From a virus (taxonomy: Duplodnaviria > Heunggongvirae > Uroviricota > Caudoviricetes), in IMG/VR virus record IMGVR_UViG_2870479586_000005: a stretch of DNA of 42,950 nt; one strand, written 5' to 3'. Within the stretch, counting starts at the first letter, position 1; each line of letters begins with the position of its first letter. Shown piece by piece: positions 22,375-37,232 of this stretch. The notes beneath the pieces are model-generated. The model made no database searches. It was not told the origin of the DNA and worked only from the letters and a program-made list of their open reading frames with translations. Made by a program: the position numbers and the translations under genes.

Positions 22375-22967
22375 GATGTGTAATCCAGCAGCTGCGCGGC
22401 GGCATTTTCAGCGGCCTCCTGAGAGGCAAACGTGCGGAACAAAATATAATTCCACAGCACATCTAAAACGGCTGAATACAGTTGACCGAACTCAAGATCG
22501 TCCATCGCAGCAAACGAGATTGAACGAGGTACGCGCATCAAACTGCCGTCTGGCATCTGATGAACGTCATAAAACCCAGCTTCCATAATCGCCCATGCGC
22601 GAAACGCCTCGAACGACTTCACCGCACTGATATTCCCCGCGCGCTTTTCCGACTCATCGAGAAGATACTGATCAGCCAGCTCTGCCATGACATCACCGTG
22701 TCCACCGTAATACGCCAGTAACTTAACGTAGCCATGGACCAGTTCGCGCTCCGCAGGAGAAATAGCCCCTCCGGACGGATGCCAGTAATCAAAGCCCAGG
22801 TTTAGAAGTGAGAAAAATTTACGATGAAACGCGGGATTACGCGCCTGTTTGAAATCTGCATACACAACAGCACCTGGTTTGACTCGTTCAGTCAACCAGC
22901 GTTGCGTGTCTGGTGTCGCGGGTATTAGCGAACCGCCGGATACCCTGATAAATGAATGCTGCGCCAT
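22371..22967 (-). CDS. DUF1367 protein (DLP12 YbcN-like)
   Basis: 198 aa, directly upstream of the DUF1364 and Q genes as in DLP12-type prophages. Confidence 0.7.
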   Translation of the reverse strand: MAQHSFIRVSGGSLIPATPDTQRWLTERVKPGAVVYADFKQARNPAFHRKFFSLLNLGFDYWHPSGGAISPAERELVHGYVKLLAYYGGHGDVMAELADQYLLDESEKRAGNISAVKSFEAFRAWAIMEAGFYDVHQMPDGSLMRVPRSISFAAMDDLEFGQLYSAVLDVLWNYILFRTFASQEAAENAAAQLLDYTS

Positions 22968-23044
22968 GTTTAACTCCAGGTGGCGCGGCAGTGTTCAGAA
23001 AATGGTGCCGGGTGTTCAATCCAGCACCGATATTATACCGTGTT

Positions 23045-23224
23045 TTACGCGTCAGGGGGTGTAATAGTATATCCAGCTATTTCTGCCAACTCGAGAAACG
23101 CCATCAGGCTGGCAATCCGTTCATCATCAGTCAGAACACGCACACCAACGATGTGTCCGTCCTTACGCTTGATAACAGCCCGGCATGTTTCCGGTAGTTC
23201 GCCTATAGATTCTTGAATATTCAT
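23045..23224 (-). CDS. 59-aa ORF behind a LexA-box promoter (candidate SOS-induced small protein)
   Basis: Translated by hand (below the track cutoff): MNIQESIGELPETCRAVIKRKDGHIVGVRVLTDDERIASLMAFLELAEIAGYTITPPDA. A GGGGGAAG RBS lies 3 nt (GAC) upstream of the ATG. 180 nt including the stop. Confidence 0.45.
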   Translation of the reverse strand: MNIQESIGELPETCRAVIKRKDGHIVGVRVLTDDERIASLMAFLELAEIAGYTITPPDA

Positions 23225-23246
23225 GTCTTCCCCCTAACGCCATTGC

Positions 23247-23262
23247 CTGTGCATTTATACAG
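23247..23262. promoter_or_regulatory. LexA-box-like site CTGT-N8-ACAG
   Basis: gcCTGTgcatttatACAGta is an exact match to the CTGT-N8-ACAG core with an AT-rich spacer. It overlaps the -10 of the promoter below. Confidence 0.5.
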
Positions 23263-23282
23263 TATTTTATGGCATTTGTCAT
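23254..23282 (-). promoter_or_regulatory. Sigma70-like promoter for the 59-aa ORF
   Basis: Minus strand: ATGACA-17 nt-TATAAA, ending about 30 nt upstream of the ATG at 23224. Confidence 0.45.
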
Positions 23283-23375
23283 AACGCCAGATACAATGAG
23301 GGAATAATGAACAATTATATTCACGTCGTGAATTTTATTAAACGGTTTTATAGGGGATTAAACCGTTTATGGTCA

Positions 23376-24017
23376 TTATTTATCACTCCTGTAAATTGAA
23401 ATTAACCATTTTCTAATCGTCGACGCTGCAGGTGGGTCAGAGTATTTCGCCACAAAAATACCGGATATGTATTGCACACCACGCGATAATGGCGCTGTCG
23501 GGTTTTCAGTAAAAAAACGATCAGCCAGTTCAATGGCTTCGCTTTTTAATCTGTGCTGTGGCCGTCCTCCGCCCTTAGTGCCAAGGTAACGCGCCAGTTG
23601 TTTGAAACGGTAGGCGATGATTAACGGTCGCATCATCATATTGAAAAAATCTCGGGCATCGTTGTCAGCGCCTTGCGCTATCAACAGTGCAAAAAACAGA
23701 TACGGGATTGTGTACACTTCAGGAGATATACGAACCCGTTCACAAGTTGGTGGAGCCAACTCAATAAGTAAGTCAGCCAGCGGATCCCCCTTTTCTCCAT
23801 GTTTGTAATAGCGATACAGAGGCCCGATATCGAGTTCACTCACGTCAATTTCAGGATGCCCGGCAACGGTTGTACGTATCTCTTCTGCCAGAGCGTCAAA
23901 TATTACCCCGGTCCGCTCAAGATAGAGCCTCCGGGTCGAACCGCGATCATCCAACGCCCGTAACATATCTAACCGGCTTACGAAAGTTTCAGGCCAGTCC
24001 TCATAGAAAGTTTTCAT
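23376..24017 (-). CDS. Hypothetical protein (213 aa) with a possible C-terminal HTH
   Basis: Preferred start MKTFYEDW, with GAGG 5 nt upstream. The track ORF starts at a GTG at 24053. The C-terminal ..GGGRPQHRLKSEAIELA...ASTIRKWL.. is HTH_7-like by eye only. Confidence 0.55.
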   Translation of the reverse strand: MKTFYEDWPETFVSRLDMLRALDDRGSTRRLYLERTGVIFDALAEEIRTTVAGHPEIDVSELDIGPLYRYYKHGEKGDPLADLLIELAPPTCERVRISPEVYTIPYLFFALLIAQGADNDARDFFNMMMRPLIIAYRFKQLARYLGTKGGGRPQHRLKSEAIELADRFFTENPTAPLSRGVQYISGIFVAKYSDPPAASTIRKWLISIYRSDK

Positions 24018-24085
24018 AATTACCTCGAATAATAAAAACTGCATTATTTGCACAATTTATTATTCGTTTTCACATCGCAGGGTTC

Positions 24086-24115
24086 TATAAAAAAGAAAAC
24101 CCGCCGAAGCGGGTT
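24086..24115 (-). terminator. Rho-independent terminator after the 92-aa gene
   Basis: Minus strand: AACCCGC-TTCG-GCGGGTT followed by TTCTTTTTTA. Confidence 0.7.
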
Positions 24116-24135
24116 AGTTAATAAGTTACACCAGG

Positions 24136-24414
24136 TTATGAGGCCATACCGTAAGCTTTTTTATGCATCCCATGGTCATAGCCCATATTATATGCTTCAA
24201 AAGCATCTTTATGACGGACATGCCCAGCCTGGCTTTCGGGTAAATCACCTAAAACAGAGTCATCAACCGCACGCGGAACGCCGATTAATGCATGCCACAT
24301 ACCTTTATCATAGGCACATCCACAACACTTGTGCCGCCCAACGTTACCCTGATTTGCAGAAAGAACATCAAACATACTGTCGTGACGATGTGACTTTTTA
24401 CAGATGTGTTTCAT
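24136..24414 (-). CDS. Cys/His-rich 92-aa protein, monocistronic
   Basis: MKHICKKSHRHD...GRHKCCGCAYDKGMWH...HVRHKD...HGMHKK. Has its own terminator downstream. Confidence 0.55.
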   Translation of the reverse strand: MKHICKKSHRHDSMFDVLSANQGNVGRHKCCGCAYDKGMWHALIGVPRAVDDSVLGDLPESQAGHVRHKDAFEAYNMGYDHGMHKKAYGMAS

Positions 24415-24442
24415 TCATTGACCTATATCATTTTCGGTAATG

Positions 24443-24504
24443 AATGCTTTACACGGGATCCCGGTTGAGGTAATCTCCCAAACCGAGATCTCAACGAAAG
24501 CATT
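24443..24504 (+). other. Long imperfect hairpin (about 19 bp in three stacked stems)
   Basis: AATGCTTT(24443-50)/AAAGCATT(24497-504), GTTGAG(24464-69)/CTCAAC(24490-95), ATCTC(24473-77)/GAGAT(24485-89). Confidence 0.45.
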
Positions 24505-24522
24505 AACCGATGTTTTTGTATG

Positions 24523-24558
24523 GCCCTGACAGTTGGCGCTGTCAGGGCTTTCCCTTTG
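24523..24558 (+). terminator. Orphan plus-strand terminator-like hairpin
   Basis: GCCCTGACAG-TTGGCG-CTGTCAGGGC (10-bp stem) followed by TTTCCCTTTG. No plus-strand gene lies upstream. Confidence 0.5.
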
Positions 24559-24636
24559 ATGCGACTCTAAAAACTTCGCAACCTCCAGATCCTATCCAGG
24601 ACCAAGAAAAACTTCAATGAAAAGATCAAGTTAGAT

Positions 24637-24652
24637 CTGTATTTTTTTACAG
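24637..24652. promoter_or_regulatory. LexA-box-like site CTGT-N8-ACAG
   Basis: atCTGTatttttttACAGat lies in the 92-aa/ImmA intergenic region. On the plus strand it fills the 17-nt spacer between TTAGAT (24631-36) and TGTAAT (24654-59). Confidence 0.45.
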
Positions 24653-24882
24653 ATGTAATAAATCACACATGTAATAGCCTTCCCTTTCCGTTCTCATCTG
24701 GCCTCTTGTGGCATCCATTTTTTTAAGAAACATATGGACGCCTAAAAAACCACTAATGTCATGATTATCATGTATGTTTTTACTGGAAACATTGAGCCAT
24801 CCACAATGCAGCGTAAAAAGCAAGCAATTCACAAGATTTTAAAGTGATTTATCTGGAAGACTTTACTACTAACAGTTAATAT

Positions 24883-24927
24883 CGTACCAGAAGTGCAGAA
24901 TTTGCACTTTCACAGGAAAGTGGTACG
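24883..24927 (+). promoter_or_regulatory. Nested dyad symmetry in the ImmA leader
   Basis: CGTACCA(24883-89)/TGGTACG(24921-27) enclose AAGTGCA(24891-97)/TGCACTT(24903-09), about 55 nt upstream of the ImmA ATG. Confidence 0.35.
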
Positions 24928-24981
24928 GAACATGTTGTCTATATTTCGACCAACAATCGTAATGCAGTAACTGGAGGAGCT

Positions 24982-25470
24982 ATGGCTACCAACCCAAGAG
25001 AGCACGCCCGGCGAGTGCTGGACACGTTCTGGTGCGGGCGTGGTTTCCCTGTTGATCCAGCGAAAATTGCTCACGACATGGGATTAGATGTTTTTATTAC
25101 CGATCTTCCTGGGAAAGTTTCTGGCGCACTGATTAAACAAAAAGATCAAGATCCAGCGATCTTTCTAAACAGTGATGACAACAAAGTTCGTCAACGTTTT
25201 TCATGTGGGCATGAGTTGGGGCATTACATCGCCCGGCAAGCATCGCATAGTGATGAATATGAGTACGTTGATTTACGTGGCGAAACCGCAAGCGCCGGAA
25301 CGCATCCTGATGAAATTTTTGCGAACAAGTTCGCAGCAGAACTTCTGATGCCGGTTGATGAGGTCAGAAAACTGCACGCTGACGGCCAACCAAGTTATAT
25401 AATGGCGCATTATTTTGGCGTATCTGACGATGCGATGACTTATCGTTTAAAGAACTTGAGGTTGGGGTAA
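24982..25470 (+). CDS. ImmA/IrrE-family zinc metallopeptidase (M78/DUF955), stand-alone with no HTH
   Basis: 162 aa. HEXXH motif in ..FSCGHELGHYI.. and the downstream ..EIFANKFAAELLMP.. typical of the family. GGAGGA RBS. Confidence 0.85.
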   Translation: MATNPREHARRVLDTFWCGRGFPVDPAKIAHDMGLDVFITDLPGKVSGALIKQKDQDPAIFLNSDDNKVRQRFSCGHELGHYIARQASHSDEYEYVDLRGETASAGTHPDEIFANKFAAELLMPVDEVRKLHADGQPSYIMAHYFGVSDDAMTYRLKNLRLG

Positions 25471-25479
25471 CGCTTTAGA

Positions 25480-26085
25480 ATGCCATCGGATGACGATTTT
25501 AACAGCCGTTTCAAACAGGAAGTTGCACGCCGACTGAAGGATTCCCTCAACCTACACCGTCAGTTAGCAGAAGAGGTTGAGCCGGAGGACGATGAAACTC
25601 CGGTTCAGTCCCCTGATGAAACTTCACCTCTGCAAAAGATTTCGCACGACCCCAAAAAACCATCTGTCCGTATTCACGGAATAGCCAGAAAAAGAGCTGC
25701 CGAAGCTCGCAAAATGGCTGTAGCTGCGTCTAGCAAAAGAACTCCAACTGCTACACCATCTCAACAAGTCACCCGTACTGAGAGTAAAATCTTGACCGAG
25801 TTCACATCTGTGAAACAGGTGAGTTCACTTGATACCGAGCATGAGCGCAAACAACTCAACAACAAAGATTTTGAAGCTGAAATCGCTCTAAAAAAACGCT
25901 ACGGAAAATGGTTCCTGATAATCCTTGCTTGCCAACTTCTGATAATGAATGGGGTATTTATTGCCGACGGCGCAGGTAAGCTGGAATTTGAGGATTTAAC
26001 ACTACAGTTGTACATGGGCGGTACTTTGACAGAGGTATTCGGCCTCGTGCTGGTCGTGACAAAATACCTTTTTAAACGCAAGTAA
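25480..26085 (+). CDS. Protein with a disordered charged N-terminal region and two C-terminal TM helices
   Basis: 201 aa, starting 9 nt after the ImmA stop. About 140 residues are low-complexity and charged (Pro/Glu/Ser/Lys-rich). Then come KWFLIILACQLLIMNGVFIA and GGTLTEVFGLVLVVTKYLF. Confidence 0.7.
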   Translation: MPSDDDFNSRFKQEVARRLKDSLNLHRQLAEEVEPEDDETPVQSPDETSPLQKISHDPKKPSVRIHGIARKRAAEARKMAVAASSKRTPTATPSQQVTRTESKILTEFTSVKQVSSLDTEHERKQLNNKDFEAEIALKKRYGKWFLIILACQLLIMNGVFIADGAGKLEFEDLTLQLYMGGTLTEVFGLVLVVTKYLFKRK

Positions 26086-26086
26086 C
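26011..26086 (+). repeat. Direct repeat, copy 1 (the true 3' end of the 201-aa gene)
   Basis: About 76 bp, with only a handful of mismatches to 30514-30589. Confidence 0.9.
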
Positions 26087-26333
26087 TCTCTCGGTCCAAC
26101 AGTCTTTCGAAAGCCCTGATCAAAGGGCCTTGATAAATTAGCAGTGCGTTGAAAACAGATAGTTATTCCCATCAGTTCCAACGTAATACACATCAAAAAA
26201 ATCACCATTCTTTTGCTCTACGTCAACACCTACCCTTAAAAAAATAATTCTCCAAGAATGAGAAAGTTATTGTGTGTATTAGATAAGATATGAGCTGACA
26301 CATCTATGGCGTGGAGCCAAACCTAATATGACA

Positions 26334-26370
26334 GTCCGCTCTGTGCCAAGAGCGAACATTACAAACACAC
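26334..26370 (-). repeat. Conserved hairpin motif, copy A (downstream of the 291-aa gene)
   Basis: Minus strand: GTGTGTTTGTAATGTTCGCTCT-TGGCAC-AGAGCGGAC. 9-bp stem (one G-U pair), 6-nt loop. Confidence 0.6.
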
Positions 26371-26509
26371 TAAAATTTATGTTTGTACTTCGCTGTAGCC
26401 ACCTAAAAGTATTATTGCGGGTGGTTTCGTGACAATGTTAGATATTCTTCATTTTGAATTGATTACTGAATTAAGATAAAACCACCCGAATTAAAACTAT
26501 CAAAAGTAT

Positions 26510-27385
26510 CTATGGTTGTTCATCACTCTCTTCTGAAAGTATTTGTACTACTTGTCCACACTCTCCACATACTACGTGTAATTGACTATCTTCTTCGGAC
26601 TTGAAAATCTCACTAACTAAGCTATGACAGTTAGGGCATTTTATCTCGTTATCAAAACCTATGAATTTAAGGAATAAGTTTTGAATTAATGAAACTGCAG
26701 TGCAAGTGAGTATAAGGCAAATTTTAGCGTCAGGAATGTTTTTGTTTGAAGAGTGCACCGTCTCTGCGGAAAAATCCCATGCAGACTCAATCGTTGAGCG
26801 GCAATATTTTCTGAGACTTGAGTTTCGTTTTCCTGCGGCATACAACCCAATAATAATTCGGCAAATATTTTTAAAGTCAGCTGCTTTAATATTTTCTTTT
26901 TTTAATATATCCTCATGAGTTTTATAAAGGTGAGCAGCAAGCTCAACCATGCTCTCTCTACAAGTTAGTCCAATACTTTGAATATCTTCAGGGGCCTTAA
27001 TATTATTCAGAGCAACAGCAGAAGCATTTAACCTCCGGCTAATAGAACGAAGCATATCTATATCTAAAGGTAACTCATCAATAACATGTTTGAAATCATT
27101 GCTATGTCTTGCTTGTAGTCTTTGAGTTATACCCAAATGAAAAGAATATGCTTCATCAGCAGAAAAGAAAAACTCATTTTGAGTGTATAAGTTTAAAGGA
27201 ACGTTTTCACCTTCAGCAACCCACCAGTTACCATCATTTTTTGTTCTGACGTTCCAAATGTTAACCTCAAAACCTAAATCATTAAATGTTTGCTCAACTT
27301 GCATGTTTTTTATGTTTTCTATATTTTGAGTTTTTAAATATTCAGTAATTCTTTTCTCAGCATCGATTCTGTATTCTGGTGTCAT
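26510..27385 (-). CDS. Hypothetical 291-aa protein with a C-terminal zinc ribbon
   Basis: AT-rich gene. Preferred ATG at 27385, with AAGGGA upstream (the track uses a TTG at 27391). C-terminal CPNC-x18-CGEC. An internal RLQARH matches the loose Rx4-6H pattern. A TTAACG-17-TATAAT promoter-like element sits in the 58-nt gap upstream. Confidence 0.6.
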   Translation of the reverse strand: MTPEYRIDAEKRITEYLKTQNIENIKNMQVEQTFNDLGFEVNIWNVRTKNDGNWWVAEGENVPLNLYTQNEFFFSADEAYSFHLGITQRLQARHSNDFKHVIDELPLDIDMLRSISRRLNASAVALNNIKAPEDIQSIGLTCRESMVELAAHLYKTHEDILKKENIKAADFKNICRIIIGLYAAGKRNSSLRKYCRSTIESAWDFSAETVHSSNKNIPDAKICLILTCTAVSLIQNLFLKFIGFDNEIKCPNCHSLVSEIFKSEEDSQLHVVCGECGQVVQILSEESDEQP

Positions 27386-27449
27386 GTGCAATCCCTTTTA
27401 ATAAGATACTAAAAGTAAAAGCGCATTATAGCATAACACATACAATGCG

Positions 27450-36016: not shown

Positions 36017-36493
36017 TCATGCATGGTGGCCTTGCGCAGTGCTTATCACTGCTCCTCGCGTCGCTACCAGCGCCGCTATTGCTTCGTCAATTTCCTGAAT
36101 AGTTAACTCTGGCGCGAAGTGGAGATGTACAGCGTTAATCGCTTCCACCCCTTCTTTTGCCGCCAGCGTTGCCAGCAAAACGGGATCGCCCGGCGACTCC
36201 AGACGCGCCCGCCGTTCTGCGGGTAGCACTGCTTTCATCACACTGGCCAGCACCTGAGTTTTTCGGCGCGCCGCCGTTGTCTCGCCACGTAACCAGCGAA
36301 AGATTTTCTGCCGGTTGTTGTTGATGGCTCTCCAGTCCACGTTGCCGTCCGTGTCCTCAAATTCATGTAGTCTCAACTCATCATTGCGTCCCTGACTGAA
36401 CCAGGCCCGGCAGATTTCAATCGTGACGAGTTCCTGCCCTGCCCTTGCCGCCCAGGTCAAAATCTCTTTTTGTAATTCCTCTTGGTTTTCCAT
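36017..36493 (-). CDS. YdaT-like protein (cII position)
   Basis: 158 aa, second gene of the rightward early operon after the Cro/YdaS-like gene, as in Rac-type prophages. Confidence 0.5.
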   Translation of the reverse strand: MENQEELQKEILTWAARAGQELVTIEICRAWFSQGRNDELRLHEFEDTDGNVDWRAINNNRQKIFRWLRGETTAARRKTQVLASVMKAVLPAERRARLESPGDPVLLATLAAKEGVEAINAVHLHFAPELTIQEIDEAIAALVATRGAVISTAQGHHA

Positions 36494-36552
36494 AGCGTCT
36501 CCTGTCGCTAAAAATTGATTACGCTTAATCAGATGTAATAAGCCGCCTTTTG

Positions 36553-36750
36553 CTAAGCTTTTTCATGTTTTGGAACATCGTAAAAAGTCGGGTCATATTT
36601 CAGTGCTCCATTAGTGATATGGTCGAGTCGAGCTGCTCGCTTTTCAGGAACTGTTGCCCCCCAACGAGTAACCGCCACTTGTGATATACCCAGCACCTTG
36701 GCTGTGGCTGTCTTTGAACCAAAAAAACTAATAACCGTCTCTGTTTTCAT
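36553..36750 (-). CDS. Cro-like HTH repressor (YdaS/Cro family)
   Basis: 65 aa. ..GSKTATAKVLGISQVAVTRW.. HTH. GGAGGA RBS. Divergent from the cI-like gene. Confidence 0.75.
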   Translation of the reverse strand: MKTETVISFFGSKTATAKVLGISQVAVTRWGATVPEKRAARLDHITNGALKYDPTFYDVPKHEKA

Positions 36751-36762
36751 AATTCCTCCGCG

Positions 36763-36813
36763 TAACTTTTGTTAGCAACATAAATACTAACGAAAGTTAT
36801 GTCAAGTTAACTT
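36763..36813. promoter_or_regulatory. OR operators (TAAC-N4-GTTA)
   Basis: TAACTTTTGTTA (36763-74) and TAACGAAAGTTA (36788-99), plus the palindrome AAGTTAACTT (36804-13). Confidence 0.55.
36777..36805 (-). promoter_or_regulatory. PR: TTGACA-17-TATGTT
   Basis: Perfect -35 on the minus strand. An operator half-palindrome pair occupies the spacer. Confidence 0.6.
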
Positions 36814-36818
36814 ATATT

Positions 36819-37232
36819 ATGAGGATGAAAAATTTGATGCTTAGCGACCGTTTATCTCAAAGACGCAAACAGCTTGGTCTAACCCAACAACAGCTTGCTG
36901 ATATGGTTGGAAGATCGAGTGTGAGCGTTTTTAAATGGGAAAGCGGACAAAATGAACCAAAGGGCCAGAACTTGTTGGCTTTGGCCAATGCACTCAAGTG
37001 TTCTGCCACATGGCTGCTTTTTGGTGACGAAGACCAGGCGCCAACTCCGGTAGACGAATTACCAACAGAGCTGGATTCACGTCAAAAAAGATTGTTAGAG
37101 TTATTTGATTCATTACCCGAGTCAGAAAAAGAAAAGCAACTAATTGAATTAGAAGATAAAGTTGAAAACTTTAATCGTTTATTTGAAGAGTTACTGGTTA
37201 CCAGAAAGAAACTAACCCCCACCAAAAAATAA
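36819..37232 (+). CDS. cI-like prophage repressor (XRE HTH) without an S24 peptidase domain
   Basis: ..LGLTQQQLADMVGRSSVSVFKWESGQNEP.. HTH followed by an acidic coiled-coil tail. At most 137 aa, with no LexA-like Ser/Lys domain. Start could be 36819, 36825 or 36837. Confidence 0.8.
   Translation: MRMKNLMLSDRLSQRRKQLGLTQQQLADMVGRSSVSVFKWESGQNEPKGQNLLALANALKCSATWLLFGDEDQAPTPVDELPTELDSRQKRLLELFDSLPESEKEKQLIELEDKVENFNRLFEELLVTRKKLTPTKK

Follow-up and report, generated by a model that had tools for sequence, protein, structure and literature searches.

The 42,950-nucleotide stretch of IMG/VR record IMGVR_UViG_2870479586_000005, referred to here as the window, is part of an Escherichia coli prophage whose head genes are lambda-like and whose tail genes are P2-like. 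The prophage further comprises a Q antiterminator, a replication module of the RepO/helicase kind and an immunity region of YdaT type; in E. coli strain C41 its integration site adjoins tRNA-Ser and mtfA. A variable cargo hotspot of this lambdoid prophage, with the Q-antiterminator region on one side and the antirepressor/replication region on the other, holds a two-gene cassette encoding a small metallopeptidase and a protein with two transmembrane (TM) helices. This cassette, which probably constitutes a RosmerTA-type toxin-antitoxin (TA) module, is the subject of the present analysis. Its two genes are as follows.

24982..25470, plus strand: rmrA-like gene, encoding a 162-amino-acid (aa) ImmA/IrrE (Peptidase_M78) zinc metallopeptidase without a helix-turn-helix (HTH) domain, a predicted antitoxin (Pfam, PADLOC, homology to gp32 of Gordonia phage Kita, AlphaFold2)
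25480..26085, plus strand: rmrT-like gene, encoding a 201-aa protein, a predicted pore-forming, membrane-depolarising toxin (phrog_5346, hydropathy, AlphaFold2, homology to Kita gp33)

The two open reading frames (ORFs) share the plus strand, are separated by 9 nt and are flanked on either side by minus-strand genes, as described in a previous reading of the DNA (hereafter the sequence-only reading). The same reading remarked on the absence of a fused or adjacent HTH partner, and this also holds, as the 162-aa protein consists of a peptidase only, no HTH gene adjoins the pair and the neighbouring 92-aa and 225-aa proteins display no Pfam match. The peptidase gene has a strong Shine-Dalgarno sequence (GGAGG at 24973-24977, 4 nt before the ATG), while that of the 2-TM gene, read directly from the sequence, is weak and limited to a distant G-run.

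The 162-aa protein matches Pfam Peptidase_M78 (PF06114; E=7.7e-18) and phrog_87 ('metallo-protease'). The minimal M78/DUF955 peptidase that had been proposed from a HELGH motif and a FAAELLMP block was thus borne out by profile search, and the protein falls within the M78 family, against the eventuality, allowed for in that proposal, that it would not. In PADLOC the top match is CapP (E=2.4e-25), although over profile positions 3-151 of 242 only, and partial matches to RmrA models follow (E down to 5.8e-12, positions ~166-266 of a 363-position profile). Besides the HELGH motif, the protein contains the third zinc-ligand block FANKFAAELLMP; across 67 orthologues there is no or almost no variation at residues H77, E78, H81 and E111, the source of the HExxH motif and of the third zinc ligand, and on these residues the peptidase is predicted to be catalytically intact. 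The AlphaFold2 model obtained from the 67 orthologues (pLDDT of 91) has CapP (PDB code 7T5T; fold TMq of 0.65) and IrrE/PprI (PDB codes 3DTE and 8SLN) as its nearest neighbours in the PDB, with CapP 7T5T also being the closest PDB match by sequence (E=1.7e-4).

The 201-aa protein displays a single library match, to phrog_5346 ('unknown function') over its full length, and has no counterpart in Pfam or PADLOC. A Pfam scan of all 20 members of an alignment of the family (A1), with E values up to 10, revealed nothing credible and no match to a SLATT or holin family, while a Foldseek search of the structural model against BFVD returned nothing below E=3.9, the model being mostly disordered (mean pLDDT of 62). 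The predicted layout comprises a helix at residues 4-32, a disordered charged linker at 33-118 (pLDDT below 50 across 34-118) and two further helices at 119-164 and 172-198. Hydropathy, which peaks at residues ~143-163 and ~175-195, concurs with the AlphaFold2 model in presenting helix 119-164 as a long juxtamembrane helix that runs into TM1 and residues 172-198 as TM2. Both ends of the protein are predicted to be cytoplasmic (N-in/C-in) because of the positive-inside rule, with LKKRYGKW preceding TM1 and KYLFKRK at the C-terminus. These data agree with the disordered, charged N-terminal region and two C-terminal TM helices of the sequence-only reading, and the effector-like character that it gave this partner is judged correct.

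A word-indexed search retrieved 48 relatives of the 2-TM protein, and an exhaustive profile search extended the family to 674 cluster representatives (50% identity clusters) at E<=1e-3. The 150 listed among these 674 are all small proteins (49-236 aa) in which the 2-TM domain is C-terminal. Alignment A1, together with the distant members, reveals that only the last ~85 residues, corresponding to the juxtamembrane helix and the 2-TM hairpin, are widely conserved, with a rough consensus of D-x-x-LKK-x-Y-x-x-W... Q-L-x-x-M-N... L-Y-M-G-G-T-L-x-E-V-F-G-x-V-L-V-x-T-K-Y-L-F and conserved polar residues Q152, N157 and E185 within the 2-TM domain. The N-terminal part of the family is charged, of low complexity and very variable in length. 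The peptidase is much more strongly conserved than this part of the toxin; at two related loci (L018 and L019), for instance, the identity values are 86-89% for the peptidase and 51-52% for the N-terminal part of the toxin. This pattern is compatible with the latter being a fast-evolving substrate or sensor region, of which it is no proof.

The association of the two genes extends well beyond E. coli. An M78 gene lies directly upstream, and on the same strand, in 33/33 fetched loci that carry a full-length 2-TM relative, at an intergenic distance of -23 to +11 nt and often with an overlap, which answers affirmatively the question raised previously of whether homologues of the 201-aa protein are always next to ImmA. 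These loci derive from GTDB genomes, IMG/VR, a protein collection and GenBank phages, and include 24 from locus scans (L001 among them), L034, L036, L038, L039, L040, L042-L044, L045, Mammaliicoccus phage phi31 and Gordonia phage Kita; L035 and L041, which are short contigs ending within the pair, were left out of the count. Hosts span Proteobacteria, Firmicutes and Actinobacteria, with carriers in Enterobacterales, Plesiomonas, Gallibacterium, Microbulbifer, Thalassotalea and Silvimonas, as well as in a Desulfuromonas metagenome-assembled genome (MAG), Firmicutes prophages, a Rhodococcus MAG and Gordonia phages. Among complete E. coli genomes, 453 of 5426 (~8%) contain the cassette.

The genomic contexts of the pair are equally diverse. 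It is found in the lambdoid nin region, at a prophage end beside the integrase, between a Mor-like late activator and the endolysin of a Mu-like phage (L010), in similar positions upstream of lysis or head genes (L007, L038), after the holin and lysin of Firmicutes prophages, in P4-like satellites with primase, AlpA and integrase, and at plain chromosomal sites, for example after sucD or beside a tRNA. No HTH gene was observed as a conserved neighbour, either in the window or at the related loci. Peptidase orthologues of ~53-56% identity keep the 2-TM partner (L034, L036), and one of 45% identity (L037) occurs without it. The two-gene unit is conserved and mobile, independently of its neighbours, and the pair is not a new architecture. 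Disruption of the pair by IS1 in some genomes was considered and ruled out, as the IS1 element is inserted downstream of the toxin gene and not within the pair. Separately, in viral contig L024 (4407-4880) a protein with a Panacea (DUF4065)-like N-terminal motif, KLQKLLYYCQ, recognised by eye only, is encoded just upstream of the pair, which may point to TA modules of the NetFlax network nearby.

RosmerTA was defined as a system consisting of a Zn-peptidase antitoxin and a toxin whose function is unknown (10.1101/2022.05.11.491447). The RosmerTA of Gordonia phage Kita was validated by Ernits et al. (2023, PNAS; PMC10440598), in which RmrA(D25) is an ImmA-type protease antitoxin and RmrT a pore-forming, membrane-depolarising toxin. 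Expression of Kita RmrT rapidly abolishes translation, transcription and replication, and depolarises and permeabilises the E. coli membrane (PMC10440598). The defence conferred by the Kita pair is narrow, extending to a few BASEL myoviruses, the second of which is Bas59 or Bas60, as text and figure legend disagree (PMC10440598). D25 proteins 'often', and thus not always, carry an HTH domain (Ernits et al., PMC10440598). RmrA(D25) corresponds to Kita gp32 (YP_009301393.1) and RmrT(D5) to gp33 (YP_009301394.1); gp32, a 178-aa 'metallo-protease', overlaps the 119-aa gp33 by 4 nt, and the order of the two genes is that of the window.

Both members of the window pair display homology to their Kita counterparts. 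The peptidase presents 43% identity to gp32 over 157 residues (BLASTP, E=1e-41). For the 2-TM proteins the relationship was detected at profile level, as a broad hidden Markov model (HMM) of the family gives gp33 43.6 bits (E=1.3e-9 at Z=1e6) and a narrower one 34.6 bits, compared with a best score of 11.8 bits among 2000 shuffles of gp33 that kept its hydrophobic block; in a control of 2636 natural ORFs, true family members alone score. Alignment of the enterobacterial 2-TM profile to gp33 with hhalign gave E=9e-5 and a probability of 59%, and the gp33 alignment spans both TM helices, including the conserved TM2 glutamate. Kita was reached solely via the family member of the Rhodococcus MAG, which in tblastn matches gp33 of Kita and its relatives. 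A tblastn search of INPHARED phages with the E. coli toxin returned a single weak match, to Mammaliicoccus phage phi31 (E=1), which was confirmed as a 2-TM relative by gene context and by HMM (E of 1e-8 to 1e-10). The Kita proteins also served as a control for the library searches: RmrA reproduces the PADLOC pattern of the window peptidase, with CapP as top match (6.7e-26) and RmrA models matched in part, and RmrT, similar to the window 2-TM protein, has no Pfam or PADLOC match. Thus, the failure of the libraries to call the window locus is no evidence against its membership, because the validated Kita pair fails likewise.

Taken together, the pair is probably a RosmerTA-type TA and anti-phage module of the Kita subtype (RmrA D25/RmrT D5), carried as a moron by a lambdoid E. 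coli prophage. The sequence-only reading had named RosmerTA as a comparison and its general idea of a membrane-acting TA or abortive-infection module proved right; its statement that the pair fits neither known template exactly did not, as in Kita RosmerTA the peptidase has no HTH and precedes a small toxin anchored in the membrane by its C-terminal part, both being homologous to the window proteins. A literature search for M78 plus transmembrane defence systems under other names revealed nothing beyond RosmerTA. Two further systems were ruled out as matches by their architecture: in the E. coli TA of Rousset 2021 the toxin comes first and the system depends on clpP, and PD-lambda-2 of Vassallo 2022 comprises HigB, an Xre-peptidase fusion and a third gene.

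Several points weigh against the Kita-type assignment. The homology of the toxin to Kita RmrT is remote and confined to the 2-TM domain, with the enterobacterial-only profile reaching just the above 59% in hhalign, and PADLOC would not label the locus RosmerTA, as no RmrT model matches. The long, fast-evolving disordered linker of the 201-aa toxin has no counterpart in the tested system, where the toxin comprises 119 aa. In Kita itself RmrT is neutralised by RmrA only incompletely, and the RmrA/RmrT complex could not be modelled by AlphaFold (PMC10440598). Finally, it is a prediction that the E. coli pair would behave as the Kita pair does in toxicity, neutralisation and defence.

The topology of the 2-TM protein invites a different explanation, in which it would be a superinfection-exclusion or lysis-timing (holin/antiholin-like) protein, processed or matured by the peptidase and displaying no TA behaviour. 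The N-in/C-in arrangement and the basic C-terminal tail resemble class II holins and, as described above, the pair adjoins the lysis cassette in several phages. The host phages, however, have holins of their own, and the pair is also found in satellites and at chromosomal sites devoid of lysis genes, while the Kita homologue is a toxin counteracted by the peptidase in a pair that confers defence (PMC10440598). We consider such a non-toxic membrane function unlikely.

Under the Kita-type RosmerTA assignment, the efficiently translated peptidase (strong Shine-Dalgarno sequence) would, in a lysogen, hold the poorly translated toxin (weak, distant Shine-Dalgarno sequence) harmless. The peptidase would most likely bind or cleave the cytoplasmic N-terminal or juxtamembrane region of the toxin, possibly with the assistance of ClpXP, as reported for other Rosmer systems; transposon sequencing in Pectobacteriaceae showed rmrA to be essential and clpX essentiality to correlate with the presence of rmrA (PMC13566846). 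A susceptible phage would, on infecting the cell, upset this balance and release the toxin, which would then oligomerise and collapse the membrane potential, leading to abortion of the infection.

A stand-alone ImmA could alternatively act in trans on the non-autocleavable prophage repressor (36819..37232), whose cleavage would induce the prophage and in which the 2-TM protein would play an accessory or sensory part; this role of trans-acting protease had been put forward in the sequence-only reading. ImmA, IrrE and CapP all cleave Xre-type repressors (10.64898/2026.05.16.725639), and the prophage repressor is a short, 137-aa HTH_3 protein that lacks an S24 or peptidase domain. The peptidase gene, however, is located 11 kb from the immunity region and its repressor, is coupled to the 2-TM gene and to no repressor at the 33 loci, and travels among unrelated phages, P4-like satellites, Mu-like phages and chromosomal sites. 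The protein also lacks the GAF domain of the ssDNA-sensing groove found in CapP and IrrE. Moreover, the prophage probably has another route to induction. The best SOS box in the window, TACTGTATAAATGCACAG (23245-23264, minus strand; 17.3 bits), is placed between a promoter-like region and the ribosome-binding site, ~20 nt upstream of the latter, of a 59-aa ORF (23045..23224, minus strand). This box is conserved in 9 related contigs, with a diverged allele presenting the perfect consensus TACTGTATATATATACAG. The 59-aa protein belongs to phrog_340, a family whose matches include the C-terminal part of the prophage's ORF6N antirepressor, and it is probably the small, LexA-controlled antirepressor of this element. 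Because the prophage has a conventional SOS-to-antirepressor route and the peptidase is strictly coupled to the 2-TM gene across unrelated elements, a trans-acting anti-repressor function appears highly improbable. A weak LexA-like match, CACTTGTGATATACCCAGCA (36676-36695; 10.5 bits), was also observed in the divergent repressor/cro intergenic region (36493-36819); rather than an SOS box, it probably represents an operator-like sequence.

The region upstream of the cassette contains the following features.

24631..24658, no strand assigned: LexA-box-like palindrome TTAGATCTGTA-N6-TACAGATGTAA, with 11-nt arms at 24631-24641 and 24648-24658 and the core CTGT-N8-ACAG at 24637-24652
24649..24724, no strand assigned: indel of ~76 bp, bounded by A-T7-A direct repeats (24641-24649 and 24717-24725), which supplies the right (ACAG) half of the palindrome
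24722..24981, plus strand: untranslated cassette leader of ~260 nt, nearly invariant among the E. coli copies (alignment A2)
24883..24927, plus strand: nested dyad CGTACCA...TGGTACG (24883-24889/24921-24927) enclosing AAGTGCA-N5-TGCACTT (24891-24897/24903-24909)

The palindrome underlies the SOS-triggered interpretation of the sequence-only reading, whereby LexA bound at 24631-24658 would repress the operon, and DNA damage or prophage induction would switch on a membrane effector operating as an abortive-infection, exclusion or lysis-assisting device. The CTGT-N8-ACAG site does exist, at 24637-24652, as one of 2 such sites in the window against 0.45 expected, and is embedded in the 11-nt-arm palindrome. 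Its score of 13.2 bits is attained only ~0.17 times per shuffled 43-kb window, yet it lies at the low edge of the training range (12.7-26.6 bits) of a position weight matrix of E. coli SOS boxes that is itself approximate. The site is also 345 nt away from the ATG of the peptidase gene. The TTAGAT/TGTAAT pair said to flank it as a promoter did not stand, since the hexamers are poor, TGTAAT lacks the A at position 2 of a -10 element and a sigma-70 scan revealed no promoter-like site at this position.

The 76-bp segment that supplies the right half of the site is present in only 22 of the 453 cassette-bearing complete E. coli genomes, and is missing from 5 of 7 closely related E. coli-type contigs from IMG/VR and GTDB (L012-14, L016 and L017), which read CTGTATTTTTCAGAAAC instead, a sequence that is not an SOS box. 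No CTGT-N8-ACAG was found within 600 nt upstream of the distant cassettes, where only a poor CTG-N10-CAG occurs in L004, L011 and L019, and several of these cassettes have ordinary sigma-70-like hexamers near the start codon. E. whittamii (L002) retains both CTGT and ACAG. An insertion is unlikely to have generated a palindrome with 11-nt arms by chance, so that the long form may have come first and the short one have lost the segment by deletion between the A-T7-A repeats. The palindrome is nevertheless lineage-specific and outside the conserved parts of the module, which is maintained without it, as ~95% of the E. coli cassettes and every distant one lack the site. These observations, added to the weakness of the site, make an SOS-triggered membrane effector improbable, and that interpretation was not borne out. 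We note that E. coli isolate AF39 has a natural type I-E CRISPR spacer (NZ_OZ547136.1, 666950-666982; see also L049 401-433) that matches 24647-24678 at 100%, with an AAG protospacer-adjacent motif at 24679-24681 on the minus strand; the variable 76-bp segment is thus its target.

The conserved 260-nt leader downstream of the palindrome probably contains the promoter of the operon. The leader displays no convincing small ORF, and an Rfam search of 22800-26600 identified no family. The nested dyad that had been noticed previously is present and conserved in 8/8 aligned E. coli-type cassettes; it could be an operator or an RNA hairpin, the predicted RNA fold of the leader dyad being not unusual (z = -1.18). 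Further upstream, a 12-bp GC-rich hairpin followed by TTTCCCTTT (24522-24549) resembles a terminator on the plus strand; it stands between the cassette and the divergently oriented gene of the 92-aa protein (24136..24414, minus strand), and no plus-strand gene is evident upstream of it.

A bolder variant of the Kita-type assignment can be conceived, in which the HTH-less RmrA would be a true 'proteolytic antitoxin' that cuts the linker or juxtamembrane helix of RmrT, thereby destroying or licensing the toxin, while a LexA operator acquired or retained in a minority lineage would couple the SOS response to a membrane-depolarising effector. If so, DNA damage or prophage induction would reset the balance between toxin and antitoxin; we give this combined scheme little credence.

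A second trace of the toxin gene is found downstream of the pair.

30514..30589, plus strand: orphan remnant of a diverged 2-TM toxin allele, of which it keeps the 3' end with the last 25 codons and the stop; ~90% identical to 26017-26085

The remnant lies between an LprI gene and a convergent ORF6N antirepressor gene, and this LprI-remnant-ORF6N arrangement is a fixed unit in more than 10 related contigs (29515-30589 plus 30613-31449 in the window; L013, L014, L016, L025, L027-L032). Such fixation indicates that the scar is old and inherited with the LprI gene. At L025/L026 the intact pair was replaced by other cargo, leaving a 28-codon 3' remnant; the replacement (L025 3300-8800) includes genes for a GmrSD_N/Menshen NsnA-like protein of 352 aa, a protein of 182 aa that has an RxxxxH-like motif, and a membrane protein of 242 aa. 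Between pair and remnant, the window contains the gene of a 359-aa DUF2971 protein (27863-28942, minus strand), which matches the PADLOC phage-defence candidate PDC-S31 (1e-50), followed by that of an unassigned protein of 293 aa with a zinc ribbon at its C-terminus (26510..27391, minus strand). The region is thus a hotspot of variable cargo and defence genes, where recombination boundaries recur at the 3' end of the toxin gene. The remnant of a homologous 2-TM gene pointed out previously is real, but as a recombination scar it says nothing on function, and the hotspot context supports a defence-type role for the pair by association only.

The assignment provides a functional label, RosmerTA of the Kita subtype, for a pair annotated merely as 'ImmA/IrrE metallo-endopeptidase' and 'hypothetical protein' in the E. 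coli genomes that carry it, and reveals a toxin family that is large and extends across phyla. Present defence finders miss these loci because the toxin family has no Pfam or PADLOC model. Two over-interpretations, SOS control and a role as anti-repressor protease, are corrected. With its tractable host and native prophage, the E. coli pair would be convenient for working out how a sensor-less ImmA-type peptidase controls a membrane toxin.

Comparison with known systems places the pair as follows. Like the ImmA of ICEBs1 and of Gram-positive temperate phages, the window protein is carried by a mobile element as a stand-alone M78 peptidase, ~160-170 aa long. ImmA/ImmR systems are characterised by an adjacent Xre-type HTH repressor within the immunity module, which contrasts with the window and related loci, where there is no ImmR-like or other HTH neighbour, the gene lies outside the immunity/lysogeny module and the conserved partner is a membrane protein. 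CapP/CapH, a CBASS-associated regulator, and IrrE/DdrO provide the peptidase domains closest in sequence and fold (PADLOC CapP, 7T5T, 3DTE/8SLN). In CapP, the HTH and GAF domains (142-288) form an ssDNA-sensing groove (10.64898/2026.05.16.725639), and the window peptidase ends where these domains start. It lacks, in addition, the cysteine of the cysteine switch in the loop between HExxH and the third ligand. A CapP/CapH locus combines a peptidase with HTH and GAF domains (~240-290 aa) with CapH and a regulated operon, whereas the window has neither an adjacent HTH substrate nor a CapH-like gene, nor a defence operon downstream for the peptidase to regulate.

Canonical RosmerTA (Millman et al. 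2022) shares with the window pair an M78 Zn-peptidase antitoxin, a variable toxin and TA-type phage defence, and its PADLOC RmrA models match the peptidase domain. Canonical RmrA, however, is a protein of ~360-400 aa with an N-terminal Xre HTH, while the window protein corresponds to the peptidase domain alone; an HTH-fused RmrA next to an RmrT-model match is found neither in the window nor in the validated Kita pair. The Kita RosmerTA differs from the window pair in host phylum and phage type, in having been established by experiment and not, as here, from sequence, and in its shorter toxin, the E. coli protein having an additional N-terminal helix and a disordered charged linker of ~85 residues; the window lineage also carries the upstream LexA-like palindrome. 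In both, a tightly coupled gene order of peptidase followed by toxin is observed, the peptidase being HTH-less and of ~160-180 aa, and the toxin small, variable at its N-terminus and homologous in its C-terminal 2-TM domain, which presents the TM2 motif T-x-x-E-V-x-G...I/V-T-x-x-L-F. Both pairs, moreover, are phage-borne morons located outside the immunity module.

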